A stretch of 64,000 nucleotides of DNA, taken from contig OZ220727.1 of NCBI GenBank assembly GCA_965116865.1, positions 3,038,307-3,102,306 of the forward strand, read 5' to 3'. This document shows, piece by piece, positions 189 to 23,949 of this stretch (its first letter is position 1; each line of letters begins with the position of its first letter). The notes below the pieces were generated by a model. That model was given only the letters and a program-made list of their open reading frames with translations, searched no databases and was not told the DNA's origin. A program made the translations under genes and the position numbers. The DNA is from Acidimicrobiales bacterium. Its GTDB lineage: Bacteria; Actinomycetota; Acidimicrobiia; Acidimicrobiales; Aldehydirespiratoraceae.

Positions 189-200
189 TAAGGTTGCGCT

Positions 201-2843: not shown

Positions 2844-2860
2844 GGTCGCGGGTCAGGGTC
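2691..2860. repeat. 66-bp tandem duplication (2 copies plus a partial third) covering the ATPase 5' end, its start codon and the SBP stop
   Basis: gggttcggtcg(tg)gtcgcgggtcggggcttgtt(g/t)gggtggtgttcggtgtttgcggggttgggg repeated. Encodes PNPANTEHHPNKPRPAT twice. The partial third copy contains the ATG (2843-2841). Confidence 0.8.
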
Positions 2861-4160: not shown

Positions 4161-4361
4161 CTCGCCCTCCTCGAAGCGGGCCGTAGCGGCCGCGCGGTCA
4201 CGACCTCGGGCGCCGACCAGTCTGCCAACGCGCGGCGGGCGCGGCAACGGCCGCGCACGGTCCTGGCGGCGGTCGGCCTGCGGTTTTCCGTCGGCGGCTC
4301 ACGGGCGCGGCGGGGGTCCTGCTCCCGCCGCTGGGGGGGAGGTTGTTGCAACCCCACCAAG

Positions 4362-4401
4362 CTGGTATACAGTCCGGTATACGAGTCTGTATACCAGGAG
4401 G
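4362..4401 (+). promoter_or_regulatory. Triple GTATAC motif and 9-bp-stem hairpin abutting the Shine-Dalgarno of giant gene 1
   Basis: CTGGTATAC (4362-4370), GGTATAC (4376-4382), GTATACCAG (4389-4397). The outer pair are perfect reverse complements. AGGAGG lies at 4396-4401 and the ATG at 4407. Confidence 0.45.
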
Positions 4402-4406
4402 CTGTT

Positions 4407-7400
4407 ATGTCTGAGACACTACCGAGTCGGCTGCTGACGGCGCGCTGGGCCCGCGCGGCGGGCCGCGGCGCTCTCGTGAAGGTGTCGTGCGCGAGGGCCG
4501 CGGCCGCGCTCGTGGCCGTCGCGCTGGTGGCCGTGCTGCTGCCTGCGGCGGTCTCGGCGCAGGCGCTGTCGGATGTCGCCGCGCTCAATAACATCACGGT
4601 GGCCGGCGGGACCTTGTCGCCGGAGTTCTCTGCCGACGTTCATGGCTACCGCGTGGGCGTCGCCCACGACGAGGACCAGGCGACGGTCGGGTTCACCAAG
4701 GGCCACAGCGGCCAGCAGGTGGCCCTCAAGGACGGCTCCGACCAGGACCTCGCCGACGCCGACACCGGCGAGGGCGGCCACCAAGTGGACCTGGCCCACG
4801 GCGCCAACACGGTGAAGCTGGTCGTCACGCCCGAGGACACCGCCGCCGACGCCGCGACCTACACCCTGACCATTGTGCGGGCCCTGCCCGCCGGCGTGGT
4901 CGGGGTGCCTGCAGACTGGGCCCTGAAGCCCGACGGTCTGAGCGCCGGCGACCAGTTCCGGCTCATGCTCGTCACGAGCAGCACACGCGACGCCGCATCG
5001 ACGAGCATCGACGACTACGACACGTTCGTGCGCGGCACGATCACCAGCAACGGCCACGACGCCATCAAGGAGTTCGCCCGGTTCTTCAAAGCGCTGGCCA
5101 GCACCGCTGCGGTCTCGGCCCGCGACCACACGACGACGACGTACACCGACGGCGGCGCCGAAGGCGTGCCCATCCACTGGCTGAACGGTCAGCGCGTCCA
5201 TGCAAGAAACCCCGATGGGGCAGAGCCCAGACTCGTGCCGGTCAACAATTATGAGGAATTCTGGGAGACGAGCGACTCGTGGTATATGAGACCCCGCTAT
5301 GAGACCGGCTCGCGCGCATCGGGCTCCCAAACTCTCATTTGGACGGGCTCTGCGTCAGACGGCAGCCGGATGGAGGGGGCGACGCTGGGCTCGACAGCCG
5401 TGCATACGGGGCATTTCGACCAATCCGTACTATTCAGCCGCCCCTTCAATGAAAGACAGGACAACACATTAGACAACTCCCGTGAATTCCGGATGCTGGG
5501 TTTGTCGGGTGTGTTTCAGGTGGTGGATGTTCTGCCTGCTGCTGGGTTGGCTGCGTTGTCGGTGACCGCGGCGGGCGACTCGGACGACAGGCTGCACGGT
5601 TTTTCTATAGATCACAGTGTCTATCATGGCGGGTTCGGTGCGGGTGTGTCGCGGGCGACGCTGGATTGGACGGCGGTGGATGAGGCCGTGGCGGCAGTGT
5701 CGGTGCTGGACGCGGACGGTGGCGTGCTCGAAGACGCCGACGGCGGGCAGGAGGGCCACCAGGTCGACTTGGAGGAGGGCCTCAACACCGTCACCGTCAG
5801 GGTGGCGCGCACCGACAACAACTTGAGCAGGGAATACACGCTGCATCTGGGGGTCGGCTCGACGGAGCTGGGCGGCTGGCGCGCCGACGACGACATTGAT
5901 TTCTTGTGGAATGTCGACGGCATCAAACCCCGCGGCATGACGGGCACCGTCGACACATTGTGGGTGGCCGACGCGGGCAGCAACAAACTGCTGGCGTTCG
6001 ACCGCTCCGACGGCAGCCGGGAGGCGGGCCGCGACATCATGTTGAGCTCCGCCGACGGAAACGACAAGTTGTGGGGCGGAATCTGGTCCGACATGGTCAA
6101 GGACGGCAGCGATTTCACGGTGAGCGGCACGGTGTGGGTGGCCGACCCCGACAACGACAAGCTCTTCGCGTACAGGATCGATGTCAACGCCGACGGCACG
6201 CCGGGCACGGATCACGGCGGCCGCGACTCCGGCAAGGACATCAAGTTGTCGGGGGGCAACGACAATCCGGAGGGTTTGTGGTCGAACGGTTCGACGATGT
6301 GGGTGAACGACAGCCGCGACCGCAATCTGTACGCGTACCATCTTGGCGGCACCAGTCACGGCGAACGCGACTCGGACAAAGACATCGATGTCTCGAGCTT
6401 GTTCAATGGCAACGAGCGGCCGAAAGGCATTGTCGGCGACGGCACCGCAGTCTGGGTGCTCAACGACTCCAACAACAGGCTGCAGGCGTTCCAGATCGCC
6501 AACAAGCTGCGCAACCAGAGCTGGGATATCCGACTGCACGACAGCCAACACCAACGCTCCGGCAGCAGGCCCTACAGCGCGTGGATCGAAGGCGATGCAA
6601 TCTACGTGGACCGCGGCAACAAAGCATCCTCCAAGGTCTTCGCCTACAACACCACCCACGACACGTCGCTGTCCAGCGTCGCCCTTTCGGGCCTGACGCT
6701 GACGGGCAGCGACTCCAGCGCACTCACGCTCAACCCGACGTTCGCGCCCGGCGTCACCTACTACGAGACGACCGATCCGTACGTCGGCGACAAGGTGACG
6801 GTAGCCGCCGTCGGTTCCCACGTCGGCGCCGGGGTCAAGGTCGCCCCCGCCGACGCCGACAGCGTCGAGACCGGCCACCAGGTCGCCGTTATGTTCGACC
6901 GCACCCACATCGAGGTCACAGCAACAGCACCGAGCGGGTACATCGAGTCCTATCGCGTGCTTGTGAGCGTCGGCGAGGTACAGGCTCTCAACGACTGGGC
7001 CCTCAAGCCACAGGGCCTCTCGGTCGGCGACCGGTTCCGTACCGGCGACTGGAACGTGTTCAAGTCGGTGACGGTGGCTGCGGGCGCTGATGCTGTCATT
7101 GCCGATGAGGCGGTGACGTTGCGCTATGCGGCGTCGGGCGACGGCTACGACGTGTCGGGTGATGTGGCGGTGACTGCCGCCGACGACACGGGCGCGCTGG
7201 TGTTCGTCGACGCTCCAGTGTCTGTGATTGAGGGCCGCAGCGCCTTTTATGGGGTGAAGTTGTCGGCTGAGCCGTCGGGTTCTGTGTCGGTGTCGGTGGC
7301 TGCGGGCGGTGATCTGGTGCTGTCGTCCGGGTGGGTGGGTTCGGTGTCTGTGCTGTCGTTGGCGTTCACGACGGGTGACTGGAATGTGTTCAAGTCGGTG

Positions 7401-10400
7401 AGGGTGGATGCCGCTGCCGACGATGACATCGCCGACGACGTTGTGACGCTGCGCCATGTCGCGTCGGGTGGCGGCTACGACGTGTCGGGTGATGTGGTGG
7501 TGAGGGTCGAAGATGACGATATTGGGGGGTTGATGTTCACTTCGGGTTCGGTGTCGGTGGGTGAGGGTGCCGGGGTCGCGTACGGGGTGAGGTTGTCGGG
7601 TGAGCCGTCGGGTTCTGTGTCGGTGTCGGTGGCTGCGGGCGGTGATCTGGTGCTGTCGTCCGGGTGGGTGGGTTCGGTGTCTGTGCTGTCGTTGGCGTTC
7701 ACGACGGGTGACTGGAATGTGTTCAAGTCGGTGAGGGTGGATGCCGGTTCCGACGATGACATCGTCGACGACGTTGTGGCGCTGCGCCATGTCGCGTCGG
7801 GCGGCGGCTACCACGCGTCGGGTGATGTGGAGGTGACCGTCGAAGACGACGATATTGCGGGGTTGGAGTTCACTTCACCGTCGGGGTCGGTGTCGGTGGG
7901 CGAGGGCTCGCACACGGTCTACGGGGTGAGGCTGTCGGCTGAGCCTTCGGGGCCTGTGTCGGTGTCGGTGTCGACGGTCGCGGGCAGTGATCTGGTGCTG
8001 TCGAGTGCGGGTTCGGTGGCGGTGACGCTGCTCGCGGCGAGCGATCTGGTACCGGGCAGGGCCATGGTGTCGGGTTCGGTGTCTGTGCTGTCGTTGGCGT
8101 TCACGACGGGTGACTGGAATGTGTTCAAGTCGGTGAGGGTGGATGCCGGTTCCGACGATGACATCGTCGACGACGTTGTGGCGCTGCGCCATGTCGCGTC
8201 GGGCGGCGGCTACCACGCGTCGGGTGATGTGGAGGTGACCGTCGAAGACGACGATATTGCGGGGTTGGAGTTCACTTCACCGTCGGGGTCGGTGTCGGTG
8301 GGCGAGGGCTCGCACACGGTCTACGGGGTGAGGCTGTCGGCTGAGCCTTCGGGGCCTGTGTCGGTGTCGGTGTCGACGGTCGCGGGCAGTGATCTGGTGC
8401 TGTCGAGTGCGGGTTCGGTGGCGGTGACGCTGCTCGCGGCGAGCGATCTGGTACCGGGCAGGGCCATGGTGTCGGGTTCGGGGTCTGTGTTGTCGTTGGT
8501 GTTCGCTGCGGATGATTGGGACAGCTTCCAGTCGGTGACGGTGCTTGCCGGTTCCGACGATGACATTGTCGACGATGTCGTGGTGTTGCGCCACATGGCG
8601 TCGGGTGGCGGTTTCGATGTGTCGGGTGATGTGGAGGTGACGGTCGAAGATGACGATATCGGGGGGTTGATGTTCACTTCGGGTTCGGTGTCGGTGGGTG
8701 AGGGTGCCGGGGTCGCGTACGGGGTGAGGTTGTCGGGTGAGCCGTCGGGTTCTGTGTCGGTGTCGGTGGCTGCGGGCGGTGATCTGGTGCTGTCGTCCGG
8801 GTTGGTGGGTTCGGTGTCTGTGCTGTCGTTGGCGTTCACGACGGGTGACTGGAATGTGTTCAAGTCGGTGAGGGTGGATGCCGGTTCCGACGATGACATC
8901 GTCGACGACGTTGTGGCGCTGCGCCATGTCGCGTCGGGCGGCGGCTACCACGCGTCGGGTGATGTGGAGGTGACCGTCGAAGACGACGATATTGCGGGGT
9001 TGGAGTTCACTTCACCGTCGGGGTCGGTGTCGGTGGGCGAGGGCTCGCACACGGTCTACGGGGTGAGGCTGTCGGCTGAGCCTTTGGGGCCTGTGTCGGT
9101 GTCGGTGTCGACGGTCGCGGGCAGTGATCTGGTGCTGTCGAGTGCGGGTTCGGTGGCGGTGACGCTGCTCGCGGCGAGCGATCTGGTACCGGGCAGGGCC
9201 ATGGTGTCGGGTTCGGGGTCTGTGTTGTCGTTGGTGTTCTCTGTGGGTGATTGGGACAGTTTCCAGTCGGTGACGGTGCTTGCCGGTTCCGACGATGACA
9301 TTGTCGACGATGTCGTGGTGTTGCGCCACACGGCGTCGGGTGGTGGTTTCGATGTGTCTGGTGATGTGGAGGTGACCGTCGAAGACGATGACACCGCGGG
9401 GTTGGTGTTCGATGCGGGTTCGGTGTCTGTGGTTGAGGGTGCCGGGGTCGAGTACGGGGTGAGGTTGTCTGCTGAGCCGTCGGGGTCTGTGTCTGTGTCG
9501 GTGTCGGCGGGCGCGGGCAGTGATCTGGTGTTGTCGGCTGCGACGGCGGGTTCGGGTTCTGTGTTGTCGTTGGTGTTCGCTGTGGGTGATTGGGACAGTT
9601 TCCAGTCGGTGACGGTGCTTGCTGGTTCTGACGATGACATTGTCGACGATGTCGTGGTGTTGCGCCATGTGGCGTCGGGTGGTGGTTTCGATGTGTCGGG
9701 TGATGTGGAGGTGACGGTCGAAGATGATGACACCGCGGGGTTGGTGTTCGACGCGGGGTCGGTGTCGATGGTTGAGGGTTCGCACGCGGTTTACGGGGTG
9801 AGGTTGTCTGCTGAGCCGTCGGGGTCTGTGTCTGTGTCGGTGTCGGCGGTCGCGGGCAGTGATCTGGTGTTGTCGGCTGCGACGGCGGGTTCGGGTTCGG
9901 TGTTGTCGTTGGTGTTTGCTGTGGGTGATTGGGACAGTTTCCAGTCGGTGACGGTGCTTGCTGGTTCTGACGATGACATTGTCGACGATGTCGTGGTGTT
10001 GCGCCATGTGGCGTCGGGTGGTGGTTTCGATGTGTCGGGTGATGTGGAGGTGACGGTCGAAGATGATGACACCGCGGGGTTGGTGTTCGATGCGGGGTCG
10101 GTGTCGGTGGTTGAGGGTGCCGGGGTCGAGTACGGGGTGAGGTTGTCGGGGGAGCCGTCGGGGTCTGTGTCTGTGTCGTTGTCGGCGGTTGACGGCGCGG
10201 GTGGTGATCTGGTGTTGTCGGCTGCGACGGCGGGTTCGGGTTCTGTGTTGTCGTTGGTGTTCGCTGTGGGTGATTGGGACAGTTTCCAGTCGGTGACGGT
10301 GCTTGCTGGTTCTGACGATGACATTGTCGACGATGTCGTGGTGTTGCGCCATGTGGCGTCGGGTGGTGGTTTCGATGTGTCTGGTGATGTGGAGGTGACG

Positions 10401-13400
10401 GTCGAAGATGATGACACCGCGGGGTTGGTGTTCGACGCGGGTTCGGTGTCTGTGGGTGAGGGTGCCGGGGTCGAGTACGGGGTGAGGTTGTCTGCTGAGC
10501 CGTCGGGGTCTGTGTCGGTGTCGGTGTCGGCGGTCGCGGGCAGTGATCTGGTGTTGTCGGCTGCGACGGCGGGTTCGGGTTCGGTGTTGTCGTTGGTGTT
10601 TGCTGTGGGTGATTGGGACAGTTTCCAGTCGGTGACGGTGCTTGCCGGCGGCGACGATGACATTGTCGACGATGTCGTGGTGTTGCGCCATGTGGCGTCG
10701 GGTGGTGGTTTCGATGTGTCTGGTGATGTTGAGGTGACGGTCGAAGATGACGACACCGCGGGGTTGGTGTTCGACGCGGGGTCGATGTCGATGGGCGAGG
10801 GTTCGCACGCGGTTTACGGGGTGAGGTTGTCTGCTGAGCCGTCGGGGTCTGTGTCTGTGTCTGTGTCGGCTGTTGACGGCGCGGGTGGTGATCTGGTGTT
10901 GTCGGCTGCGACGGCGGGTTCGGGTTCTGTGTTGTCGTTGGTGTTCGCTGTGGGTGATTGGGACAGTTTCCAGTCGGTGACGGTGCTTGCTGGCGGCGAC
11001 GATGACATCGTCGACGATGTCGTGACGTTGCGCCACATGGCGTCGGGTGGTGGTTTCGATGTGTCTGGTGATGTGGAGGTGACCGTCGAAGATGATGACA
11101 CCGCGGGGTTGGTGTTCGATGCGGGTTCGGTGTCTGTGGTTGAGGGTGCCGGGGTCGAGTACGGGGTGAGGTTGTCGGGTGAGCCGTCGGGGTCTGTGTC
11201 TGTGTCGTTGTCGGCGGTTGACGGCGCGGGTGGTGATCTGGTGTTGTCGGCTGCGACGGCGGGTTCGGGTTCTGTGTTGTCGTTGGTGTTCTCTGTGGGT
11301 GATTGGGACAGTTTCCAGTCGGTGACGGTGCTTGCTGGTTCTGACGATGACATTGTCGACGATGTCGTGGTGTTGCGCCATGTGGCGTCGGGTGGTGGTT
11401 TCGATGTGTCTGGTGATGTGGAGGTGACGGTCGAAGATGATGACACCGCGGGGTTGGTGTTCGATGCGGGTTCGGTGTCTGTGGTTGAGGGTGCCGGGGT
11501 CGAGTACGGGGTGAGGTTGTCGGGTGAGCCGTCGGGGTCTGTGTCTGTGTCGTTGTCGGCGGTTGACGGCGCGGGTGGTGATCTGGTGTTGTCGGCTGCG
11601 ACGGCGGGTTCGGGTTCTGTGTTGTCGTTGGTGTTCTCTGTGGGTGATTGGGACAGTTTCCAGTCGGTGACGGTGCTTGCTGGTTCTGACGATGACATTG
11701 TCGACGATGTCGTGACGTTGCGCCATGTGGCGTCGGGTGGTGGTTTCGATGTGTCTGGTGATGTGGAGGTGAGGGTCGAAGATGATGACACCGCGGGGTT
11801 GGTGTTCGATGCGGGTTCGGTGTCTGTGGTTGAGGGTGCCGGGGTCGAGTACGGGGTGAGGTTGTCGGGTGAGCCGTCGGGGTCTGTGTCTGTGTCGGTG
11901 TCGGCTGTTGACGGCGCGGGTGGTGATCTGGTGTTGTCGGCTGCGACGGCGGGTTCGGGTTCTGTGTTGTCGTTGGTGTTCGCTGTGGGTGATTGGGACA
12001 GTTTCCAGTCGGTGACGGTGCTTGCTGGTTCTGACGATGACATTGTCGACGATGTCGTGGTGTTGCGCCATGTGGCGTCGGGTGGTGGTTTCGATGTGTC
12101 TGGTGATGTGGAGGTGACGGTCGAAGATGATGACACCGCGGGGTTGGTGTTCGATGCGGGTTCGGTGTCTGTGGTTGAGGGTGCCGGGGTCGAGTACGGG
12201 GTGAGGTTGTCGGGTGAGCCGTCGGGGTCTGTGTCTGTGTCTGTGTCGACGGTCGCGGGCAGTGATCTGGTGTTGTCGGCTGCGACGGCGGGTTCGGGTT
12301 CTGTGTTGTCGTTGGTGTTCGCTGTGGGTGATTGGGACAGTTTCCAGTCGGTGACGGTGCTTGCTGGTTCTGACGATGACATTGTCGACGATGTCGTGGT
12401 GTTGCGCCATGTGGCGTCGGGTGGTGGTTTCGATGTGTCTGGTGATGTGGAGGTGACGGTCGAAGATGATGACACCGCGGGGTTGGTGTTCGATGCGGGT
12501 TCGGTGTCTGTGGTTGAGGGTGCCGGGGTCGAGTACGGGGTGAGGTTGTCGGGTGAGCCGTCGGGGTCTGTGTCTGTGTCGGTGTCGGCTGTTGACGGCG
12601 CGGGTGGTGATCTGGTGTTGTCGGCTGCGACGGCGGGTTCGGGTTCTGTGTTGTCGTTGGTGTTTGCTGTGGGTGATTGGGACAGTTTCCAGTCGGTGAC
12701 GGTGCTTGCCGGCGGCGACGATGACATTGTCGACGATGTCGTGACGTTGCGCCATGTCGCGTCGGGTGGTGGTTTCGATGTGTCTGGTGATGTGGAGGTG
12801 ACGGTCGAAGATGATGACACCGCGGGGTTGGTGTTCGATGCGGGTTCGGTGTCTGTGGTTGAGGGTGCCGGGGTCGAGTACGGGGTGAGGTTGTCGGGTG
12901 AGCCGTCGGGGTCTGTGTCTGTGTCGGTGTCGGCTGTTGACGGCGCGGGTGGTGATCTGGTGTTGTCGGCTGCGACGGCGGGTTCGGGTTCTGTGTTGTC
13001 GTTGGTGTTTGCTGTGGGTGATTGGGACAGTTTCCAGTCGGTGACGGTGCTTGCCGGCGGCGACGATGACATTGTCGACGATGTCGTGACGTTGCGCCAT
13101 GTCGCGTCGGGTGGTGGTTTCGATGTGTCTGGTGATGTGGAGGTGACCGTCGAAGATGATGACACCGCGGGGTTGGTGTTCGACGCGGGTTCGGTGTCTG
13201 TGGTTGAGGGTGCCGGGGTCGAGTACGGGGTGAGGTTGTCTGCTGAGCCGTCGGGGTCTGTGTCGGTGTCGGTGTCGGCTGTTGACGGCGCGGGTGGTGA
13301 TCTGGTGTTGTCGGCTGCGACGGCGGGTTCGGGTTCGGTGTTGTCGTTGGTGTTTGCTGTGGGTGATTGGGACAGTTTCCAGTCGGTGACGGTGCTTGCC

Positions 13401-16400
13401 GGCGGCGACGATGACATTGTCGACGATGTCGTGGTGTTGCGCCATGTGGCGTCGGGTGGTGGTTTCGATGTGTCTGGTGATGTGGAGGTGACGGTCGAAG
13501 ATGATGACACCGCGGGGTTGGTGTTCGATGCGGGTTCGGTGTCGGTGGTTGAGGGTGCCGGGGTCGAGTACGGGGTGAGGTTGTCGGGTGAGCCGTCGGG
13601 GTCGGTGTCGGTGTCGGTGTCGGCGGTTGACGGCGCGGGTGGTGATCTGGTGTTGTCGGCTGCGACGGCGGGTTCGGGTTCTGTGTTGTCGTTGGTGTTT
13701 GCTGTGGGTGATTGGGACAGTTTCCAGTCGGTGACGGTGCTTGCCGGCGGCGACGATGACATTGTCGACGATGTCGTGACGTTGCGCCATGTCGCGTCGG
13801 GTGGTGGTTTCGATGTGTCTGGTGATGTGGAGGTGACCGTCGAAGATGATGACACCGCGGGGTTGGTGTTCGACGCGGGTTCGGTGTCTGTGGTTGAGGG
13901 TGCCGGGGTCGAGTACGGGGTGAGGTTGTCGGGTGAGCCGTCGGGGTCTGTGTCTGTGTCGGTGTCGGCTGTTGACGGCGCGGGTGGTGATCTGGTGTTG
14001 TCGGCTGCGACGGCGGGTTCGGGTTCTGTGTTGTCGTTGGTGTTTGCTGTGGGTGATTGGGACAGTTTCCAGTCGGTGACGGTGCTTGCCGGCGGCGACG
14101 ATGACATTGTCGACGATGTCGTGACGTTGCGCCATGTCGCGTCGGGTGGTGGTTTCGATGTGTCTGGTGATGTGGAGGTGACGGTCGAAGATGACGACAC
14201 CGCGGGGTTGGTGTTCGACGCGGGGTCGATGTCGATGGGCGAGGGTTCGCACGCGGTTTACGGGGTGAGGTTGTCGGGTGAGCCGTCGGGGTCGGTGTCT
14301 GTGTCGGTGTCGGCTGTTGACGGCGCGGGTGGTGATCTGGTGTTGTCGGCTGCGACGGCGGGTTCGGGTTCTGTGTTGTCGTTGGTGTTTGCTGTGGGTG
14401 ATTGGGACAGTTTCCAGTCGGTGACGGTGCTTGCCGGCGGCGACGATGACATTGTCGACGATGTCGTGACGTTGCGCCATGTCGCGTCGGGTGGTGGTTT
14501 CGATGTGTCTGGTGATGTGGAGGTGACGGTCGAAGATGATGACACCGCGGGGTTGGTGTTCGATGCGGGTTCGGTGTCGGTGGTTGAGGGTGCCGGGGTC
14601 GAGTACGGGGTGAGGTTGTCTGCTGAGCCGTCGGGGTCTGTGTCTGTGTCGTTGTCGACGGTCGCGGGCAGTGATCTGGTGTTGTCGGCTGCGACGGCGG
14701 GTTCGGGTTCTGTGTTGTCGTTGGTGTTCGCTGTGGGTGATTGGGACAGTTTCCAGTCGGTGACGGTGCTTGCCGGCGGCGACGATGACATTGTCGACGA
14801 TGTCGTGACGTTGCGCCATGTCGCGTCGGGTGGTGGTTTCGATGTGTCTGGTGATGTGGAGGTGACGGTCGAAGATGATGACACCGCGGGGTTGGTGTTC
14901 GATGCGGGTTCGGTGTCGGTGGTTGAGGGTGCCGGGGTCGAGTACGGGGTGAGGTTGTCTGCTGAGCCGTCGGGGTCTGTGTCTGTGTCGTTGTCGACGG
15001 TCGCGGGCAGTGATCTGGTGTTGTCGGCTGCGACGGCGGGTTCGGGTTCTGTGTTGTCGTTGGTGTTCGCTGTGGGTGATTGGGACAGTTTCCAGTCGGT
15101 GACAGTGCTTGCCGGCGGCGACGATGACATTGTCGACGATGTCGTGACGTTGCGCCATGTCGCGTCGGGTGGTGGTTTCGATGTGTCTGGTGATGTGGAG
15201 GTGACCGTCGAAGACGATGACACCGCTGGGTTGGTGTTCGATGCGGGTTCGGTGTCGGTGGTTGAGGGTGCCGGGGTCGAGTACGGGGTGAGGTTGTCTG
15301 CTGAGCCGTCGGGGTCTGTGTCTGTGTCGTTGTCGACGGTCGCGGGCAGTGATCTGGTGTTGTCGGCTGCGACGGCGGGTTCGGGGTCTGTGTTGTCGTT
15401 GGTGTTCGCTGTGGGTGATTGGGACAGTTTCCAGTCGGTGACGGTGCTTGCCGGCGGCGACGATGACATTGTCGACGATGTCGTGACGTTGCGCCATGTC
15501 GCGTCGGGTGGTGGTTTCGATGTGTCTGGTGATGTGGAGGTGACCGTCGAAGACGATGACACCGCGGGGTTGGTGTTCGACGCGGGTTCGGTGTCGGTGG
15601 TGGAGGGTTCGCACGCGGTTTACGGGGTGAGGTTGTCGGGTGAGCCGTCGGGGTCTGTGTCTGTGTCGTTGTCGGCGGTTGACGGCGCGGGTGGTGATCT
15701 GGTGTTGTCGGCTGCGACGGCAGGTTCGGGGTCTGTGTTGTCGTTGGTGTTCTCTGTGGGTGATTGGGACAGTTTCCAGTCGGTGACAGTGCTTGCCGGT
15801 TCTGACGATGACATTGTCGACGATGTCGTGACGTTGCGCCATGTCGCGTCGGGTGGTGGTTTCGATGTGTCTGGTGATGTGGAGGTGACGGTCGAAGATG
15901 ATGACACCGCTGGGTTGGTGTTCGATGCAGGTTCGGTGTCGGTGGTTGAGGGTGCCGGGGTCGAGTACGGGGTGAGGTTGTCTGCTGAGCCGTCGGGGTC
16001 TGTGTCTGTGTCGTTGTCGACGGTCGCGGGCAGTGATCTGGTGTTGTCGGCTGCGACGGCGGGTTCGGGTTCTGTGTTGTCGTTGGTGTTCGCTGTGGGT
16101 GATTGGGACAGTTTCCAGTCGGTGACGGTGCTTGCCGGCGGCGACGATGACATTGTCGACGATGTCGTGACGTTGCGCCATGTCGCGTCGGGTGGTGGTT
16201 TCGATGTGTCTGGTGATGTGGAGGTGACCGTCGAAGACGATGACACCGCTGGGTTGGTGTTCGATGCGGGTTCGGTGTCGGTGGTTGAGGGTGCCGGGGT
16301 CGAGTACGGGGTGAGGTTGTCGGGTGAGCCGTCGGGGTCGGTGTCGGTGTCGGTGTCGGCGGTTGACGGCGCGGGTGGTGATCTGGTGTTGTCGGCTGCG

Positions 16401-19400
16401 ACGGCGGGTTCGGGTTCTGTGTTGTCGTTGGTGTTTGCTGTGGGTGATTGGGACAGTTTCCAGTCGGTGACGGTGCTTGCCGGCGGCGACGATGACATTG
16501 TCGACGATGTCGTGACGTTGCGCCATGTCGCGTCGGGTGGTGGTTTCGATGTGTCTGGTGATGTGGAGGTGACCGTCGAAGATGATGACACCGCGGGGTT
16601 GGTGTTCGACGCGGGTTCGGTGTCGGTGGTGGAGGGTTCGCACGCGGTTTACGGGGTGAGGTTGTCGGGTGAGCCGTCGGGGTCTGTGTCTGTGTCGTTG
16701 TCGGCGGTTGACGGCGCGGGTGGTGATCTGGTGTTGTCGGCTGCGACGGCAGGTTCGGGGTCTGTGTTGTCGTTGGTGTTCTCTGTGGGTGATTGGGACA
16801 GTTTCCAGTCGGTGACAGTGCTTGCCGGTTCTGACGATGACATTGTCGACGATGTCGTGACGTTGCGCCACATGGCGTCTGGTGGTGGTTTCGATGTGTC
16901 TGGTGATGTTGAGGTGACCGTCGAAGACGATGACACCGCGGGGTTGGTGTTCGACACGGGGTCGGTGTCGGTGGTTGAGGGTGCCGGGGTCGAGTACGGG
17001 GTGAGGTTGTCTGCTGAGCCGTCGGGGTCTGTGTCTGTGTCGGTGTCGGCGGGCGCGGGCAGTGATCTGGTGTTGTCGGCTGCGACGGCGGGTTCGGGTT
17101 CTGTGTTGTCGTTGGTGTTCGCTGTGGGTGATTGGGACAGTTTCCAGTCGGTGACGGTGCTTGCTGGTTCTGACGATGACATTGTCGACGATGTCGTGGT
17201 GTTGCGCCATGTGGCGTCGGGTGGTGGTTTCGATGTGTCGGGTGATGTGGAGGTGACGGTCGAAGATGATGACACCGCGGGGTTGGTGTTCGATGCGGGG
17301 TCGGTGTCGGTGGTTGAGGGTGCCGGGGTCGAGTACGGGGTGAGGTTGTCTGCTGAGCCGTCGGGGTCTGTGTCTGTGTCGGTGTCGGCGGTTGATGGCG
17401 CGGGTGGTGATCTGGTGTTGTCGGCTGCGACGGCGGGTTCGGGTTCTGTGTTGTCGTTGGTGTTCGCTGTGGGTGATTGGGACAGTTTCCAGTCGGTGAC
17501 GGTGCTTGCTGGTTCTGACGATGACATTGTCGACGATGTCGTGGTGTTGCGCCATGTGGCGTCGGGTGGTGGTTTCGATGTGTCGGGTGATGTGGAGGTG
17601 ACGGTCGAAGATGATGACACCGCGGGGTTGGTGTTCGATGCGGGGTCGGTGTCGGTGGTTGAGGGTGCCGGGGTCGAGTACGGGGTGAGGTTGTCTGCTG
17701 AGCCGTCGGGGTCTGTGTCTGTGTCGGTGTCGGCGGTTGATGGCGCGGGTGGTGATCTGGTGTTGTCGGCTGCGACGGCGGGTTCGGGTTCTGTGTTGTC
17801 GTTGGTGTTCGCTGTGGGTGATTGGGACAGTTTCCAGTCGGTGACGGTGCTTGCTGGTTCTGACGATGACATTGTCGACGATGTCGTGGTGTTGCGCCAT
17901 GTGGCGTCGGGTGGTGGTTTCGATGTGTCGGGTGATGTGGAGGTGACGGTCGAAGATGATGACACCGCGGGGTTGGTGTTCGATGCGGGTTCGGTGTCGG
18001 TGGTTGAGGGTGCCGGGGTCGAGTACGGGGTGAGGTTGTCTGCTGAGCCGTCGGGGTCTGTGTCTGTGTCGGTGTCGGCGGTCGCGGGCAGTGATCTGGT
18101 GTTGTCGGCTGCGACGGCGGGTTCGGGTTCTGTGTTGTCGTTGGTGTTCGCTGTGGGTGATTGGGACAGTTTCCAGTCGGTGACGGTGCTTGCTGGTTCT
18201 GACGATGACATTGTCGACGATGTCGTGGTGTTGCGCCATGTGGCGTCGGGTGGTGGTTTCGATGTGTCGGGTGATGTGGAGGTGACGGTCGAAGATGATG
18301 ACACCGCAGGGTTGGTGTTCGACGCGGGGTCGATGTCGATGGTTGAAGGTTCGCACGCGGTTTACGGGGTGAGGTTGTCTGCTGAGCCGTCGGGGTCTGT
18401 GTCTGTGTCGGTGTCGGCGGTCGCGGGCAGTGATCTGGTGTTGTCGGCTGCGACGGCGGGTTCGGGTTCGGTGTTGTCGTTGGTGTTCGCTGTGGGTGAT
18501 TGGGACAGTTTCCAGTCGGTGACGGTGCTTGCTGGTTCTGACGATGACATTGTCGACGATGTCGTGACGTTGCGCCACATGGCGTCGGGTGGTGGTTTCA
18601 ATGTGTCGGGTGATGTGGAGGTGACGGTCGAAGATGATGACACCGCGGGGTTGGTGTTCGACGCGGGGTCGGTGTCGGTGGGCGAGGGTTCGCACGCGGT
18701 CTACGGGGTGAGGTTGTCGGGTGAGCCGTCGGGGTCTGTGTCTGTGTCGGTGTCGGCGGTTGACGGAGCGGGCAGTTATCTAGTGCTAGTGTCGGGTTCG
18801 AGGTCTGTGCTGTCGTTGGTGTTCGCGGCGGGTGATTGGGACAGCTTCCAGTCAGTGACGGTGTACGCTGCTGGCGACGCTGACATCGTCGACGATGTCG
18901 TGACGCTGCGCCATGTCGCGTCGGGTGGTGGTTTCGATGTGTCTGGTGATGTGGAGGTGACGGTCGAAGATGACGACACCGCGGGGTTGGTGTTCGATGC
19001 GGGGTCGATGTCGATGGTTGAGGGTTCGCACGCGGTTTACGGGGTGAGGTTGTCGGGTGAGCCGTCGGGGTCTGTGTCTGTGTCGTTGTCGGCGGTTGAC
19101 GGCGCGGGTGATGATCTGGTGTTGTCGGCTGCGACGGCGGGTTCGGGTTCTGTGTTGTCGTTGGTGTTCGCTGTGGGTGATTGGGACAGCTTCCAGTCGG
19201 TGACGGTGCATGCTGGCGGCGACGCTGACATCGTCGACGATGTCGTGACGCTGCGCCATGTCGCGTCGGGTGGTGGTTTCGATGTGTCGGGTGATATGGT
19301 GGTGACCGTCGAAGATGACGACACCGCTCCGCCGTCTCCGCCACCCCCGCCTCCTCCGCCGTCAAGTTCGCCTCTTCTTCCGCCGGAGGGTCCTTCTTCG

Positions 19401-19958
19401 TCGCAGTTCGAGGGGTTCGCCGACATGGACACCAACAGCGTCCACATGCCGGCCATCGCAACAATGTTCCACAGTGGCATCACTCGTGGTTGCGACACCG
19501 ACCCGCCGCGCTTCTGCCCCAAGCAGTCCGTCACCAGGGCTCAGATGGCCAGCCTGATGTCGCGTGCGCTCGGCTTGGACGACGCTCCCCAGCCTGCAGG
19601 CTTCGTCGATGTTGACCCGGACAGTCCCCACGCGGCGGCCATCGACGCGTTGCACTACGCCGGGATCACCATGGGTTGCGACACCGATCCGTTGCGCTAC
19701 TGTCCTGATCTGCCCGTCACCCGAGCCCAGATGGCCGGCCTCCTGCATCGAGCGCTTGGCTCAACAGGTGCTCCACGGTCTGCGGGCTTCGTCGATGTTG
19801 ACCCGGACAGTCCCCACGCGGCGGCCATCGACGCGTTGCACTACGCCGGGATCACCATGGGTTGCGACACCGATCCGTTGCGCTACTGCCCGCACCAGCA
19901 TGTCACCCGGGCTCAGATGGCCAGCCTTCTGCGACGCGCCCTCGATGCAACTGCATAA
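4407..19958 (+). CDS. Giant (5183-aa) secreted SLH-anchored cell-surface protein with 35 complete plus 1 partial Calx-beta-like Asp-rich repeats
   Basis: ATG at 4407 with AGGAGG 5 nt upstream; the upstream 255 codons of the ORF-track entry overlap the SBP gene and are rejected. Signal peptide (...LLPAAVSAQA/LSD). Three cadherin-like beta-sandwich modules (about 4567-4880, 5530-5850, 6660-6975). An uncharacterised module starting DWALKPDGLSAGDQFR (about 4880-5520). Five beta-propeller-like blades (about 5900-6650; pattern xxWVxDxxxxKLxAY...DIxL). Repeat array 7040-19325. Pro-rich linker 19326-19400. Three SLH domains. Confidence 0.9.
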   Translation: MSETLPSRLLTARWARAAGRGALVKVSCARAAAALVAVALVAVLLPAAVSAQALSDVAALNNITVAGGTLSPEFSADVHGYRVGVAHDEDQATVGFTKGHSGQQVALKDGSDQDLADADTGEGGHQVDLAHGANTVKLVVTPEDTAADAATYTLTIVRALPAGVVGVPADWALKPDGLSAGDQFRLMLVTSSTRDAASTSIDDYDTFVRGTITSNGHDAIKEFARFFKALASTAAVSARDHTTTTYTDGGAEGVPIHWLNGQRVHARNPDGAEPRLVPVNNYEEFWETSDSWYMRPRYETGSRASGSQTLIWTGSASDGSRMEGATLGSTAVHTGHFDQSVLFSRPFNERQDNTLDNSREFRMLGLSGVFQVVDVLPAAGLAALSVTAAGDSDDRLHGFSIDHSVYHGGFGAGVSRATLDWTAVDEAVAAVSVLDADGGVLEDADGGQEGHQVDLEEGLNTVTVRVARTDNNLSREYTLHLGVGSTELGGWRADDDIDFLWNVDGIKPRGMTGTVDTLWVADAGSNKLLAFDRSDGSREAGRDIMLSSADGNDKLWGGIWSDMVKDGSDFTVSGTVWVADPDNDKLFAYRIDVNADGTPGTDHGGRDSGKDIKLSGGNDNPEGLWSNGSTMWVNDSRDRNLYAYHLGGTSHGERDSDKDIDVSSLFNGNERPKGIVGDGTAVWVLNDSNNRLQAFQIANKLRNQSWDIRLHDSQHQRSGSRPYSAWIEGDAIYVDRGNKASSKVFAYNTTHDTSLSSVALSGLTLTGSDSSALTLNPTFAPGVTYYETTDPYVGDKVTVAAVGSHVGAGVKVAPADADSVETGHQVAVMFDRTHIEVTATAPSGYIESYRVLVSVGEVQALNDWALKPQGLSVGDRFRTGDWNVFKSVTVAAGADAVIADEAVTLRYAASGDGYDVSGDVAVTAADDTGALVFVDAPVSVIEGRSAFYGVKLSAEPSGSVSVSVAAGGDLVLSSGWVGSVSVLSLAFTTGDWNVFKSVRVDAAADDDIADDVVTLRHVASGGGYDVSGDVVVRVEDDDIGGLMFTSGSVSVGEGAGVAYGVRLSGEPSGSVSVSVAAGGDLVLSSGWVGSVSVLSLAFTTGDWNVFKSVRVDAGSDDDIVDDVVALRHVASGGGYHASGDVEVTVEDDDIAGLEFTSPSGSVSVGEGSHTVYGVRLSAEPSGPVSVSVSTVAGSDLVLSSAGSVAVTLLAASDLVPGRAMVSGSVSVLSLAFTTGDWNVFKSVRVDAGSDDDIVDDVVALRHVASGGGYHASGDVEVTVEDDDIAGLEFTSPSGSVSVGEGSHTVYGVRLSAEPSGPVSVSVSTVAGSDLVLSSAGSVAVTLLAASDLVPGRAMVSGSGSVLSLVFAADDWDSFQSVTVLAGSDDDIVDDVVVLRHMASGGGFDVSGDVEVTVEDDDIGGLMFTSGSVSVGEGAGVAYGVRLSGEPSGSVSVSVAAGGDLVLSSGLVGSVSVLSLAFTTGDWNVFKSVRVDAGSDDDIVDDVVALRHVASGGGYHASGDVEVTVEDDDIAGLEFTSPSGSVSVGEGSHTVYGVRLSAEPLGPVSVSVSTVAGSDLVLSSAGSVAVTLLAASDLVPGRAMVSGSGSVLSLVFSVGDWDSFQSVTVLAGSDDDIVDDVVVLRHTASGGGFDVSGDVEVTVEDDDTAGLVFDAGSVSVVEGAGVEYGVRLSAEPSGSVSVSVSAGAGSDLVLSAATAGSGSVLSLVFAVGDWDSFQSVTVLAGSDDDIVDDVVVLRHVASGGGFDVSGDVEVTVEDDDTAGLVFDAGSVSMVEGSHAVYGVRLSAEPSGSVSVSVSAVAGSDLVLSAATAGSGSVLSLVFAVGDWDSFQSVTVLAGSDDDIVDDVVVLRHVASGGGFDVSGDVEVTVEDDDTAGLVFDAGSVSVVEGAGVEYGVRLSGEPSGSVSVSLSAVDGAGGDLVLSAATAGSGSVLSLVFAVGDWDSFQSVTVLAGSDDDIVDDVVVLRHVASGGGFDVSGDVEVTVEDDDTAGLVFDAGSVSVGEGAGVEYGVRLSAEPSGSVSVSVSAVAGSDLVLSAATAGSGSVLSLVFAVGDWDSFQSVTVLAGGDDDIVDDVVVLRHVASGGGFDVSGDVEVTVEDDDTAGLVFDAGSMSMGEGSHAVYGVRLSAEPSGSVSVSVSAVDGAGGDLVLSAATAGSGSVLSLVFAVGDWDSFQSVTVLAGGDDDIVDDVVTLRHMASGGGFDVSGDVEVTVEDDDTAGLVFDAGSVSVVEGAGVEYGVRLSGEPSGSVSVSLSAVDGAGGDLVLSAATAGSGSVLSLVFSVGDWDSFQSVTVLAGSDDDIVDDVVVLRHVASGGGFDVSGDVEVTVEDDDTAGLVFDAGSVSVVEGAGVEYGVRLSGEPSGSVSVSLSAVDGAGGDLVLSAATAGSGSVLSLVFSVGDWDSFQSVTVLAGSDDDIVDDVVTLRHVASGGGFDVSGDVEVRVEDDDTAGLVFDAGSVSVVEGAGVEYGVRLSGEPSGSVSVSVSAVDGAGGDLVLSAATAGSGSVLSLVFAVGDWDSFQSVTVLAGSDDDIVDDVVVLRHVASGGGFDVSGDVEVTVEDDDTAGLVFDAGSVSVVEGAGVEYGVRLSGEPSGSVSVSVSTVAGSDLVLSAATAGSGSVLSLVFAVGDWDSFQSVTVLAGSDDDIVDDVVVLRHVASGGGFDVSGDVEVTVEDDDTAGLVFDAGSVSVVEGAGVEYGVRLSGEPSGSVSVSVSAVDGAGGDLVLSAATAGSGSVLSLVFAVGDWDSFQSVTVLAGGDDDIVDDVVTLRHVASGGGFDVSGDVEVTVEDDDTAGLVFDAGSVSVVEGAGVEYGVRLSGEPSGSVSVSVSAVDGAGGDLVLSAATAGSGSVLSLVFAVGDWDSFQSVTVLAGGDDDIVDDVVTLRHVASGGGFDVSGDVEVTVEDDDTAGLVFDAGSVSVVEGAGVEYGVRLSAEPSGSVSVSVSAVDGAGGDLVLSAATAGSGSVLSLVFAVGDWDSFQSVTVLAGGDDDIVDDVVVLRHVASGGGFDVSGDVEVTVEDDDTAGLVFDAGSVSVVEGAGVEYGVRLSGEPSGSVSVSVSAVDGAGGDLVLSAATAGSGSVLSLVFAVGDWDSFQSVTVLAGGDDDIVDDVVTLRHVASGGGFDVSGDVEVTVEDDDTAGLVFDAGSVSVVEGAGVEYGVRLSGEPSGSVSVSVSAVDGAGGDLVLSAATAGSGSVLSLVFAVGDWDSFQSVTVLAGGDDDIVDDVVTLRHVASGGGFDVSGDVEVTVEDDDTAGLVFDAGSMSMGEGSHAVYGVRLSGEPSGSVSVSVSAVDGAGGDLVLSAATAGSGSVLSLVFAVGDWDSFQSVTVLAGGDDDIVDDVVTLRHVASGGGFDVSGDVEVTVEDDDTAGLVFDAGSVSVVEGAGVEYGVRLSAEPSGSVSVSLSTVAGSDLVLSAATAGSGSVLSLVFAVGDWDSFQSVTVLAGGDDDIVDDVVTLRHVASGGGFDVSGDVEVTVEDDDTAGLVFDAGSVSVVEGAGVEYGVRLSAEPSGSVSVSLSTVAGSDLVLSAATAGSGSVLSLVFAVGDWDSFQSVTVLAGGDDDIVDDVVTLRHVASGGGFDVSGDVEVTVEDDDTAGLVFDAGSVSVVEGAGVEYGVRLSAEPSGSVSVSLSTVAGSDLVLSAATAGSGSVLSLVFAVGDWDSFQSVTVLAGGDDDIVDDVVTLRHVASGGGFDVSGDVEVTVEDDDTAGLVFDAGSVSVVEGSHAVYGVRLSGEPSGSVSVSLSAVDGAGGDLVLSAATAGSGSVLSLVFSVGDWDSFQSVTVLAGSDDDIVDDVVTLRHVASGGGFDVSGDVEVTVEDDDTAGLVFDAGSVSVVEGAGVEYGVRLSAEPSGSVSVSLSTVAGSDLVLSAATAGSGSVLSLVFAVGDWDSFQSVTVLAGGDDDIVDDVVTLRHVASGGGFDVSGDVEVTVEDDDTAGLVFDAGSVSVVEGAGVEYGVRLSGEPSGSVSVSVSAVDGAGGDLVLSAATAGSGSVLSLVFAVGDWDSFQSVTVLAGGDDDIVDDVVTLRHVASGGGFDVSGDVEVTVEDDDTAGLVFDAGSVSVVEGSHAVYGVRLSGEPSGSVSVSLSAVDGAGGDLVLSAATAGSGSVLSLVFSVGDWDSFQSVTVLAGSDDDIVDDVVTLRHMASGGGFDVSGDVEVTVEDDDTAGLVFDTGSVSVVEGAGVEYGVRLSAEPSGSVSVSVSAGAGSDLVLSAATAGSGSVLSLVFAVGDWDSFQSVTVLAGSDDDIVDDVVVLRHVASGGGFDVSGDVEVTVEDDDTAGLVFDAGSVSVVEGAGVEYGVRLSAEPSGSVSVSVSAVDGAGGDLVLSAATAGSGSVLSLVFAVGDWDSFQSVTVLAGSDDDIVDDVVVLRHVASGGGFDVSGDVEVTVEDDDTAGLVFDAGSVSVVEGAGVEYGVRLSAEPSGSVSVSVSAVDGAGGDLVLSAATAGSGSVLSLVFAVGDWDSFQSVTVLAGSDDDIVDDVVVLRHVASGGGFDVSGDVEVTVEDDDTAGLVFDAGSVSVVEGAGVEYGVRLSAEPSGSVSVSVSAVAGSDLVLSAATAGSGSVLSLVFAVGDWDSFQSVTVLAGSDDDIVDDVVVLRHVASGGGFDVSGDVEVTVEDDDTAGLVFDAGSMSMVEGSHAVYGVRLSAEPSGSVSVSVSAVAGSDLVLSAATAGSGSVLSLVFAVGDWDSFQSVTVLAGSDDDIVDDVVTLRHMASGGGFNVSGDVEVTVEDDDTAGLVFDAGSVSVGEGSHAVYGVRLSGEPSGSVSVSVSAVDGAGSYLVLVSGSRSVLSLVFAAGDWDSFQSVTVYAAGDADIVDDVVTLRHVASGGGFDVSGDVEVTVEDDDTAGLVFDAGSMSMVEGSHAVYGVRLSGEPSGSVSVSLSAVDGAGDDLVLSAATAGSGSVLSLVFAVGDWDSFQSVTVHAGGDADIVDDVVTLRHVASGGGFDVSGDMVVTVEDDDTAPPSPPPPPPPPSSSPLLPPEGPSSSQFEGFADMDTNSVHMPAIATMFHSGITRGCDTDPPRFCPKQSVTRAQMASLMSRALGLDDAPQPAGFVDVDPDSPHAAAIDALHYAGITMGCDTDPLRYCPDLPVTRAQMAGLLHRALGSTGAPRSAGFVDVDPDSPHAAAIDALHYAGITMGCDTDPLRYCPHQHVTRAQMASLLRRALDATA
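7040..19325 (+). repeat. In-frame coding tandem array: 6 complete plus 1 partial diverged proximal units, then 29 highly homogenised units of 112-115 aa (336-345 bp)
   Basis: Unit consensus AGLVFDAGSVSVVEGAGVEYGVRLSGEPSGSVSVSVSAVDGAGGDLVLSAATAGSGSVLSLVFAVGDWDSFQSVTVLAGGDDDIVDDVVTLRHVASGGGFDVSGDVEVTVEDDDT. The distance between the first and last homogeneous-unit boundaries (9393 to 19323) fits 11x113 + 17x115 + 1x112 aa. Confidence 0.95.
19408..19955 (+). other. Three tandem SLH (S-layer homology) domains, C-terminus of giant gene 1
   Basis: FxDxDxxSxHxxAIxxxxxxGITxGCDTDPxRxCPxxxVTRAQMAxLxxRALG repeated three times. Confidence 0.85.
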
Positions 19959-20599: not shown

Positions 20600-22546
<1,947 letters not shown>

Positions 22547-22784: not shown

Positions 22785-23949
22785 TAGTGTCCTGAGTCTT
22801 TAGTTATTGGGGTTGGTTGTGGTATGGTTGGTGTGGATGCAGGCGGTGATTGGAGGCAGTCGTGGCTAGAGGCCGTCGTGCGGTGGAGGTGGTGCTCGCC
22901 GATGAGCAGCGCGAGACGCTGGAGCGGTGGGCGCGGCGCCAGAAGTCGTCGCAGGCTCTGGCGCTGCGGTGCCGGATAGTGCTGGGCGCGGCCGCGGGGG
23001 AGACGAACAAGTCGATCGCGGCGTCGCTGGGGTGCAGCGAGGCGACGGTGTCGAAGTGGCGGCGCCGGTTCGCGGGGCGCGGGTTGGACGGGCTCTGCGA
23101 CGAGCCGCGTCCGGGCGCGCCGCGCACGGTGAGCGACGACAAGGTGCAGGAGGTGATCGTCAAGACGCTGGAGTCGGCTCCTGAGGGCGCGACGCACTGG
23201 TCGACGCGCTCGATGGCCGCGCAGGTGGGGCTGTCGCAGTCGACGATCTCGAGGATGTGGCGGGCCTTCGGGCTCAGGCCCCATGGCGTGGAGGAGTTCA
23301 AGGTGTCGCCGGACCCCCAGTTCATCGACAAGGTGCGCGACGTCGCCGGGCTGTACTTGAACCCGCCGGAGGCAGCGGTGGTGCTCTGCGTGGACGAGAA
23401 GACCCGGATCCAGGCTCTCGACCGCGCCGCGCCGGTGCTTGCCTTGATGCCGGGTGTGCCCCAGCGCCGAACCCACGACTACCGCCGCTTCGGCACCACC
23501 AACCTCTACGCGGCGCTCGACGCCGCCTCGGGCAAAGTCATCTCCTCGATGACCGCGCGCCGCCGCGCCATCGAGTTCCGCAAGTTCCTGGACCTCATCG
23601 ACAGCGAAGTCCCCGAGGGCCTCAAGGTGCATGTCGTGCTGGACAACTCCTCCACCCACAAGACCCCCGCCATACAGCGCTGGCTGCTGCGCCACCCCCG
23701 CTTCAGCTTCCACTTCACCCCCACCTACAGCTCGTGGACGAACCTCGTCGAGCGCTGGTTCGCCGAGCTCACCACCAAATGGATCCGCCGCGGCACCCAC
23801 CGCAGCACCAAAGAGCTCACCGGCTCCATCCAGCACTGGATCGACCACTGGAACCACAACCCTCGCCCGTTCACATGGCACAAGAGCGCCGACGAGATAC
23901 TCCACAACCTGGCAACATATCTCCAACGAATTTCTGACTCGGGACACTA
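22785..23949 (+). mobile_element. IS630-family insertion sequence, intact (1165 bp)
   Basis: Terminal inverted repeats TAGTGTCCTGAGTC (22785-22798) and GACTCGGGACACTA (23936-23949), 13/14 complementary, with terminal TA as expected for IS630/Tc1-type elements. Single transposase ORF. Confidence 0.9.

Follow-up and report, generated by a model that had tools for sequence, protein, structure and literature searches.

The stretch analysed here, called the window below, comprises 64,000 nucleotides from an Acidimicrobiales bacterium (GenBank assembly GCA_965116865.1, contig OZ220727.1, positions 3,038,307 to 3,102,306 of the forward strand) and carries two convergent giant genes encoding repetitive proteins. 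We studied the mosaic, cassette-like variation among the 29 near-identical units of the first of them, giant gene 1. The open reading frame (ORF) around this gene occupies 16.3 kb of the plus strand (3642-19958), with an ATG at 4407. The encoded protein is organised, in this order, into a predicted signal peptide, a non-repeat N-terminal region of about 880 amino acids (aa), a repeat stalk, a poly-Pro linker and three S-layer homology (SLH) domains. The N-terminus, as read from the translation, is signal-peptide-like (…LLPAAVSAQA, followed by LSD), and the N-terminal region comprises a Cadherin-like domain (Pfam PF12733, E = 2.8e-13) and propeller-like repeats. Based on the signal-peptide-like N-terminus and the SLH match, the protein is predicted to be secreted and attached to the cell surface. 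The principal elements of gene 1 are the following (TRF, Tandem Repeats Finder).

4407..19958, plus strand: coding sequence of giant gene 1, 5183 aa; the translation from MSETLPS equals database protein P0001
7521-9392, plus strand: older units U01-U05, in which 111-aa and 134-aa types alternate
8256-8657 and 8991-9392, plus strand: boundary chimeras U03 and U05, with the 5' two-thirds of the 134-aa type (as U02) and the 3' third of the core-array type (…LVFAADDWDSFQSVTVLAGSDDD…RHM/RHT…)
9393-19322, plus strand: 29 homogenised units U06-U34 of 339/345 bp (113/115 aa; one unit of 112 aa)
19323..19403, plus strand: Pro/Ser-rich linker from stalk to anchor, identified in the translation
19404..19955, plus strand: three SLH repeats, the putative cell-wall anchor (Pfam PF00395, E = 7.5e-14; TRF period 186)

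The gene 1 protein formed a singleton cluster present on one contig, and nothing close to gene 1 was found when metagenomes were scanned twice, with an exact 30-mer in one scan and the C-terminal protein in the other. The nearest relatives of the N-terminal region (48-59% identity) were encoded by chromosome-level metagenome-assembled genomes (MAGs) labelled 'Acidimicrobiales bacterium', and more distant ones by MAGs of Dehalococcoidia, Latescibacterota and 'Candidatus Poriferisodalis'. No orthologous array was available for comparison, because the four Acidimicrobiales relatives (L001-L004) lacked, over a distance of 10 kb, any homogenised array of about 345 bp.

Cutting the translation after a conserved 'EDDD' yielded 34 full units with lengths of roughly 111-134 aa. 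In this frame the homogenised units run from 9393 (start of U06) to 19322 (end of U34), which reproduces both the location and the number of homogenised units reported in an earlier note on this DNA. TRF described the array as 29.6 copies of a 345-bp period with 94% matches. The mean pairwise nucleotide difference among the 29 units was 7.1% and their mean aa identity 93%; at the protein level they comprised 21 different sequences and at the nucleotide level 28, with U29 and U30 as the only pair identical in nucleotides. Protein-identical units were found side by side (U15 and U16, U18 and U19, U21-23, U29 and U30). The alternative versions present in the array included SVSVVEGAGVEY, SMSMGEGSHAVY and SVSVVEGSHAVY, the loops AVDGAGGD, AVAGSD, TVAGSD and AGAGSD, VFAVGDW or VFSVGDW, and RHV or RHM. 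Both LAGGDDD...VVT and LAGSDDD...VVV were present, together with both of their recombinants (G...V in U09 and U17; S...T in U12, U24, U27 and U32). The versions quoted in the earlier note thus all exist in the combinations that it described; its placing of RHT among the 29 units did not hold, as this version occurs solely in U05 (8991-9392), outside the array. The three-unit SLSTVAGSD run, quoted there as an example of recurring blocks, corresponds to U21-U23, and U25 is identical to these units in this version. The chimeras U03 and U05 mark the meeting point of the homogenised array and the older units.

Recombination was assessed on a codon-aware nucleotide alignment of the 29 units, which contained 95 variable columns, 53 of them biallelic and informative. 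All four gametes were observed at 815 of the 1378 informative site pairs (59%), and the Hudson-Kaplan estimate of the minimum number of recombination events (Rm) was at least 15. Incompatibility between neighbouring sites was 0.465, compared with 0.592 +/- 0.018 when the site order was permuted, and lay below the values of all 2000 permutations. The mean squared correlation between sites (r2) decreased with distance, from 0.50 at less than 10 bp to 0.19 for separations of 10-30 bp and about 0.06 for those above 60 bp. A Sawyer-type condensed-fragment statistic was above all 500 permutations (0/500). The mosaic of the 29 units is real and well above chance. The nucleotide-level four-gamete and gene-conversion-type tests proposed in the earlier note therefore bore out its claim, and, instead of the full linkage that it had named as contrary evidence, recombinant combinations were abundant.

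The extent of the exchanged tracts was estimated with a greedy copy-parse, in which the array was copied from itself in register with singletons masked. A total of 90 segments was needed (median 80 columns, maximum 351). A single identical tract exceeded 400 columns (U29 and U30), which led us to reject multi-unit higher-order duplication as the source of the pattern. Three double-breakpoint patches of 26-59, 55-80 and 64-100 bp were identified on otherwise identical backgrounds.

10751..10831, plus strand: donor-like copy of an 81-nt tract at the U09/U10 boundary, identical exactly to 14195-14275
12242..12261, plus strand: example patch in U14, which differs from U13 only in columns 108-133 (tract 26-59 bp)
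14195..14275, plus strand: example patch at the U19/U20 boundary (SMSMGEGSHAVY version), 81 nt exactly identical to 10751-10831, with both flanks U15/U16-like
18308..18362, plus strand: example patch in U32 (SMSMVEGSHAVY version), columns 6-60, on a U31-like background (tract 55-80 bp)

In the case of the U19/U20 patch, the 306 nt upstream of 14195 are identical to U15, and the differences between U20 and U15 are confined to columns 21-60 and 96. The U14 patch carries the C-C' loop version STVAGSD in place of SAVDGAGGD, the 6-bp indel included. U32 and U31 differ in a second block at columns 271-304. Neighbouring units were slightly more alike than distant ones (19.9 versus about 27 differences), and near-identical units occurred 22-25 units apart (U06 with U28 and U31).

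These observations were compared with simulated 29-unit arrays of matched diversity (pi of about 0.07), which are equilibrium toy models. When only unequal crossover with an offset of up to 1 was allowed, the incompatible fraction was 0.11 and the ratio of neighbour to distant differences 0.18; with offsets of up to 5 or 10, the incompatible fraction rose to 0.26-0.28 (maximum 0.45), and r2 decayed more slowly than observed. Conversion-dominated arrays with a mean tract of 60-100 bp gave 0.54-0.59 incompatible pairs, with r2 falling to 0.04-0.06. The corresponding observed values were 0.60 for the incompatible fraction, about 0.06 for r2 beyond 60 bp and 0.74 for the neighbour/distant ratio, the last of which suggests some local duplication in addition to conversion. 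An analytic estimate according to which single-offset unequal crossover could explain the decay of linkage disequilibrium (LD) was contradicted by the simulations. Incomplete linkage, the double-breakpoint patches and the fit of the conversion-dominated toy models together uphold the proposal of the earlier note that short tracts are exchanged between units. RecA-type gene conversion and replicative template switching cannot be told apart here; the pathway is one that we only infer.

Many of the minor versions in the array are shared with the older units U01-U05 at the nucleotide level: the SH..VY block TGCACCGT, the 6-bp deletion accompanied by AGSD, T39, S65, S81, V91 and M95. A homologous SLH-anchored gene (protein P0010) was found at positions 1-6832 of an independent contig of the European Nucleotide Archive (L036; ERZ25072196, ctg186947_3x_l). 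The nucleotide identity between gene 1 units and the units of this gene ranged from about 65 to 93% in alignment windows. Both segment-A versions are found there with almost the same bases, GASVEY being encoded by GGTGCCAGTGTCGAGTAC and GSRAVY by GGTTCGCGTGCGGTTTAT. Chimeric units were present as well: X14 combines the 5' part of X13 with the 3' part of X11/X12, and X08 the 5' part of X03 with a different 3' part. The array of this contig is split by a frame break near position 608, and the '_3x' in its name suggests low coverage. Nine-nucleotide strings following the conserved Trp were identical across genes and genomes: AACGTGTTC (NVF) in unit W04 of gene 2 and X10 of L036, and GGCACCTAC (GTY) in W03 of gene 2 and X01 of L036 (W03/W04 at about 30494-31207). 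U02 of gene 1 was also in the set compared for these post-Trp alternatives; their flanks differ, which points to an old shared repertoire or to exchange between paralogues. The most variable segments of the gene 1 units also had the highest proportion of synonymous differences (pS, 0.20-0.23), as expected of old alleles and not of positive selection. These comparisons show that the alternative versions are old, inherited from older unit types and not made within the array, a point that the earlier note had not made. Their set is small because it was inherited from few old unit types under continual reshuffling.

The second giant gene served as an internal control for the gene 1 array.

25523..36250, minus strand: paralogous giant gene 2, 3575 aa, with 16 units (119 aa each), a poly-Pro linker and three SLH domains

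Its units belong to the same domain family and share 42-54% aa identity with the units of gene 1. The gene 2 array was more homogeneous than that of gene 1, with a gradient along the array and few chimeric units.

No match naming the unit of gene 1 was found in Pfam, NCBIfam or PDB sequences, and weak fn3_6 hits appeared only in some homologues of this 106-134-aa immunoglobulin (Ig)-like unit, which is present in gene 1, gene 2 and P0002-P0150. The consensus unit retrieved no homologues in a word-indexed search; an exhaustive profile search retrieved 18,500 cluster representatives at E <= 1e-3. Of the proteins retrieved, many are 2000-7900 aa long and have 20-67 copies of the domain. At least three of the homologues (P0002, P0003 and P0016) end in a C-terminal region that, by eye, resembles an autotransporter-type beta-barrel. 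The generality of mosaicism was assessed in the 14 other proteins with at least 10 units at 85% identity or more and enough informative column pairs. At the protein level, 11 of the 14 homogenised arrays had more than 20% four-gamete-incompatible column pairs (median 0.49). Mosaicism is thus a common and variable property of arrays in this domain family.

The selection acting on the units was evaluated with the Nei-Gojobori method over all unit pairs. The ratio between non-synonymous and synonymous differences (pN/pS) was 0.28 (pS 0.131, pN 0.036); no segment exceeded 0.58, and the variable regions had values of 0.58, 0.38 and 0.54. Variable sites were distributed over codon positions 1, 2 and 3 as 22, 16 and 44. 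Half of the polymorphism was synonymous and most aa changes were conservative, the non-synonymous differences being clustered at aa 11-20, 37-45 and 81-95. AlphaFold2, run on a 20-sequence alignment, predicted the unit to be an Ig-like beta-sandwich of ten strands with a predicted local distance difference test (pLDDT) score of 90, and a unit with the alternative versions was predicted to have the same secondary structure (pLDDT 89). The blocks with the lowest pLDDT (41-50 and 81-90) coincide with two variable loops. A Foldseek search with the unit model returned generic Ig-like matches only. Burial was approximated by family conservation, taken from a profile of 400 non-redundant domains from 149 homologous proteins, together with secondary structure. 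Nine of the 19 variable positions fell outside strands, compared with a baseline of 42%, and there was no enrichment in loops. Columns of the hydrophobic core held 3 of the 17 informative positions, with the swaps V/M, V/M and V/L, and were not depleted (Fisher p = 1.0). None of the 21 strongly conserved family columns varied, and family entropy at the variable positions was raised only a little (p = 0.038). The confinement of variants to a buried core, which the earlier note had named as contrary to its proposal, was not observed on the predicted unit with this proxy for burial; the positions showed neither loop enrichment nor core depletion. Such a distribution is what purifying selection alone would give, and surface variation therefore gains no support from it.

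A search for unit-like copies by blastn and tblastn found none outside the two giant genes in the 64-kb window, and a silent cassette archive in the window was rejected on this ground. The base changes were not adenine-specific (26 of the 82 variable sites involved A), and there was no reverse transcriptase among the ORFs examined, which did not include every ORF of the window. The mutation spectrum, together with those neighbouring genes that were examined, led us to reject a diversity-generating retroelement (DGR). We also rejected avoidance of identical neighbouring units, given the protein-identical units that lie side by side. No signal of positive selection was detected in the units, and none of these searches found dedicated variation machinery. 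The earlier note had left open whether the mosaic generates surface variation or is a by-product of homogenisation; the low pN/pS, the lack of loop or core bias and the shared fold favour the by-product and speak against surface variation.

The base composition of the arrays was unusual. Both arrays (9393-19322 and 26200-34000) are strongly enriched in G+T on the plus strand of the window despite their opposite coding strands. The GC skew was +0.40 to +0.44 in the gene 1 array and +0.20 in the gene 2 array, and the AT skew about −0.5 and −0.2 to −0.4, respectively, in comparison to about 0.02-0.06 elsewhere. Third codon positions of the gene 1 array contained 51% G, 29% T, 19% C and 1% A, compared with 51% C, 34% G and 8% T in the N-terminal part of the gene. 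In gene 1, S, V and G stand where the family consensus and gene 2 have T, A and D. The composition looks like a replication-strand mutational bias that has been amplified in the arrays. A loose G-quadruplex (G4)-like motif, GGGTGCCGGGGTCGAGTACGGGGTGAGGTTGTCGGG, was found on the coding strand in columns 45-80 of the units with AGVEY and G27 (e.g., 12518-12553), 11 of the 29 in total. Its density was 1.1 per kb in the array versus about 0.2 per kb elsewhere, with none in gene 2. The motif overlaps the most variable segment and is destroyed by the SHAVY version.

Among the known systems, the stalks of periscope proteins and fibrillar adhesins (SasG, Aap, Rib/alpha C and the SHIRT domains of Sgo_0707; Whelan et al. 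2021, PMC8201768; reviewed in PMC9704523) are similar to gene 1 in being wall-anchored, with a non-repeat far end and a long series of Ig-like domains, each longer than 50 residues, encoded by highly identical repeats. Intragenic homologous recombination is the proposed driver in them, as it is for gene 1. In contrast to their LPXTG anchor, the gene 1 protein has three C-terminal SLH domains and is encoded by an Acidimicrobiales-type genome; its domain, unlike those of the periscope examples, matched no Pfam or NCBIfam family, and its units are about 93% identical with old reshuffled differences, whereas periscope repeats are about 100% identical. The gene 1 protein may thus work like a periscope protein or a fibrillar adhesin stalk, a likeness drawn from a single genome, while the behaviour that defines periscope proteins is variation of repeat number between strains. 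The array also resembles tandem repeats under concerted evolution, a process described for the vls cassette array as well (PMC3828179), in that units within the array are far more alike than those of the paralogue or of the other genome (93% aa identity within the array versus 42-54% to gene 2 units), and in its chimeric units, the decay of LD with distance and local duplicated runs. It departs from full concerted evolution in that homogenisation is incomplete, and ancestral dimorphisms, common to the gene of another genome, survive.

The likeness to antigenic variation by segmental gene conversion (Borrelia vlsE/vls, Neisseria pilE/pilS, Anaplasma msp2 and Mycoplasma MgPa/MgPar) lies in the copying of short tracts and in the combinatorial mosaics of few versions. 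Those systems have an expression site and a silent donor archive, whereas all units of gene 1 lie in one expressed ORF with no copies elsewhere in the 64 kb. The variable segments of gene 1 have a pN/pS below 1, in contrast to the loop regions of Borrelia vls, where dN/dS is far above 1 (PMC3828179). No accessory element was identified for gene 1. DGRs share with gene 1 the localised variability in a surface protein, but they are characterised by adenine-specific changes and a template/variable repeat pair, and gene 1 has neither. The array fails the defining features of both archive-based antigenic variation and DGRs.

We regard it as probable that a periscope-like protein underwent concerted evolution through the exchange of short patches, an explanation in which the heterogeneity is not a dedicated device for surface variation. 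Under this explanation, 34 or more Ig-like beta-sandwich domains would form the stalk of a giant surface protein, and concerted evolution would hold the 29 core domains at about 93% identity. The units would differ mainly by a limited number of old differences derived from at least two ancestral unit types, which survive in U01-U05 and in L036. In-register homologous exchange, by gene conversion or template switching, would copy patches of tens to about 100 bp, often across unit borders, between units, and some unequal crossover would duplicate or delete units. The old differences would thereby come to lie in many combinations, and local duplication of combinations would produce the runs. The resulting heterogeneity of the protein would be tolerated, nearly neutral variation under purifying selection. 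Several points weigh against this explanation. Identical dimorphisms have survived homogenisation in several arrays and in two genomes, so that selection could keep the heterogeneity, and the aa differences cluster within two segments, at aa 11-20 and 37-45. In addition, pN/pS is a blunt test on recombining repeats, burial was derived from family conservation and secondary structure instead of coordinates, and the simulated arrays included neither founder types nor selection. The exact gene is present in one genome only, which leaves ongoing dynamics and repeat-number variation unobserved.

Heterogeneity might instead be adaptive, with balancing or diversifying selection keeping several versions and shuffling within the gene varying the stalk surface across the population; possible benefits include evasion of recognition by phages or a host, or less misfolding between identical neighbours. 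The maintenance of the segment-A and post-Trp versions (the latter being AACGTGTTC and GGCACCTAC) across genes and genomes is in line with such selection, as are the three clusters of non-synonymous differences, the coincidence of the lowest-pLDDT blocks with two variable loops, and the G4-like motif that the AGVEY version creates on the coding strand of 11 units. We nevertheless consider adaptive heterogeneity unlikely, since pN/pS is below 1 everywhere, in contrast to the vls loops, the variants show neither a loop nor a core bias, identical neighbours are not avoided, and the changes are mostly conservative with half of the polymorphism synonymous. Chimeras could also be made entirely by single-breakpoint, out-of-register unequal crossover, with no short-tract conversion. 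The near-identical neighbour runs (U21-23, U15-16 and U29-30), the slightly greater likeness of neighbours and the chimeric boundary units U03 and U05 would be expected from crossover. However, in 30 replicates the crossover-only arrays reached 0.11-0.28 incompatible pairs and at most 0.45, well short of the observed value, r2 decayed more slowly, and small offsets gave a far stronger spatial structure than that observed. Neither the double-breakpoint patches on identical backgrounds nor near-identical units 22-25 units apart fit this mechanism, and crossover alone is very unlikely to account for the array.

A technical origin was also considered, namely that, across 10 kb of near-identical repeats, reads were misplaced by assembly or polishing and the consensus units became chimeric. 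The source is apparently a metagenome-assembled chromosome, gene 1 is a singleton on one contig, the nearest relatives are long-read MAGs and no independent copy of the gene was found, all of which would allow for such an error. Yet the frame is intact over 15.5 kb with all indels being multiples of 3, variable sites are in excess at third codon positions (44 versus 22 and 16), with a pN/pS of 0.28, short-range LD is strong, identical combinations recur in several units, and chimeric units are also present in the independent assembly L036 and in other family members. We therefore consider an artefact highly improbable. Still less credence can be given to recurrent hotspot mutation, by which the same variants would arise independently in each unit with no exchange, even though the extreme strand-biased composition (GC skew +0.44; third positions 51% G and 29% T) suggests strong mutational pressure. 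Blocks of several nucleotides (9 of 12 nt in segment A; the 6-bp indel with its flanking changes) recur on different backgrounds, and independent mutation cannot produce distance-dependent incompatibility and r2 or clustered concordant sites. The distance-dependent LD effectively refutes it.

A further and very doubtful reading is a cassette system that needs no archive, in which an ancient, small repertoire is actively maintained and the expressed array acts as its own donor pool. The G/T-rich coding strand, including the G4-like motif of one segment-A version, might stimulate conversion in such a system. If it were true, each lineage would show a different stalk surface to phages or to a presumed host, and the array would represent a new, self-contained way to vary the cell surface. 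Under the preferred explanation of short-patch concerted evolution, gene 1 offers a quantified case of how a long array of near-identical domains evolves, through exchange of old differences in short patches instead of crossover alone or new mutation. The mosaic signature is common in a very large family with no Pfam or NCBIfam match. It also advises caution, as cassette-like mosaics in repeat arrays do not amount to variation systems unless accompanied by a selection signal or a donor archive.

The giant genes are accompanied by further repeats. Upstream of its 119-aa units, gene 2 contains a 319-aa higher-order repeat (31565-34474, minus strand) made of three different units of 107, 106 and 106 aa and present three times; the first copy is followed by one inserted 119-aa unit. 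The two giant genes have SLH-coding 3' ends that form a 545-nt inverted repeat (19399-19943 versus 25544-26088, 83% complementary), which could mediate inversion or exchange between them. It brackets a 5.6-kb intergenic segment whose only genes are three transposase genes.

20600-22546: transposase gene, DDE_Tnp_1/DUF772
22850-23950: transposase gene, DDE_3
24063-24470: transposase gene, ISL3 fragment

The first of these ORFs contains a degenerate simple repeat (21564-21955) with periods of 6, 9 and 15 (ACACCGCCG/CCGACA), which gave rise to spurious blastn hits to the gene 1 unit. Apart from transposases, the examined neighbours encode an ATP-binding cassette (ABC) transporter ATPase, an NMT1/THI5-like protein, an iron-dependent repressor, a pyridoxal phosphate (PLP)-dependent enzyme and a UvrD-type helicase. 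Two perfect tandem repeats with 100% matches were also present in the window: 4.5 copies of 73 bp at 24870-25199, in the transposase-rich spacer and immediately downstream of the stop codon of gene 2, and 4.9 copies of 21 bp at 56580-56682, at the start of the ORF 56551-59172.

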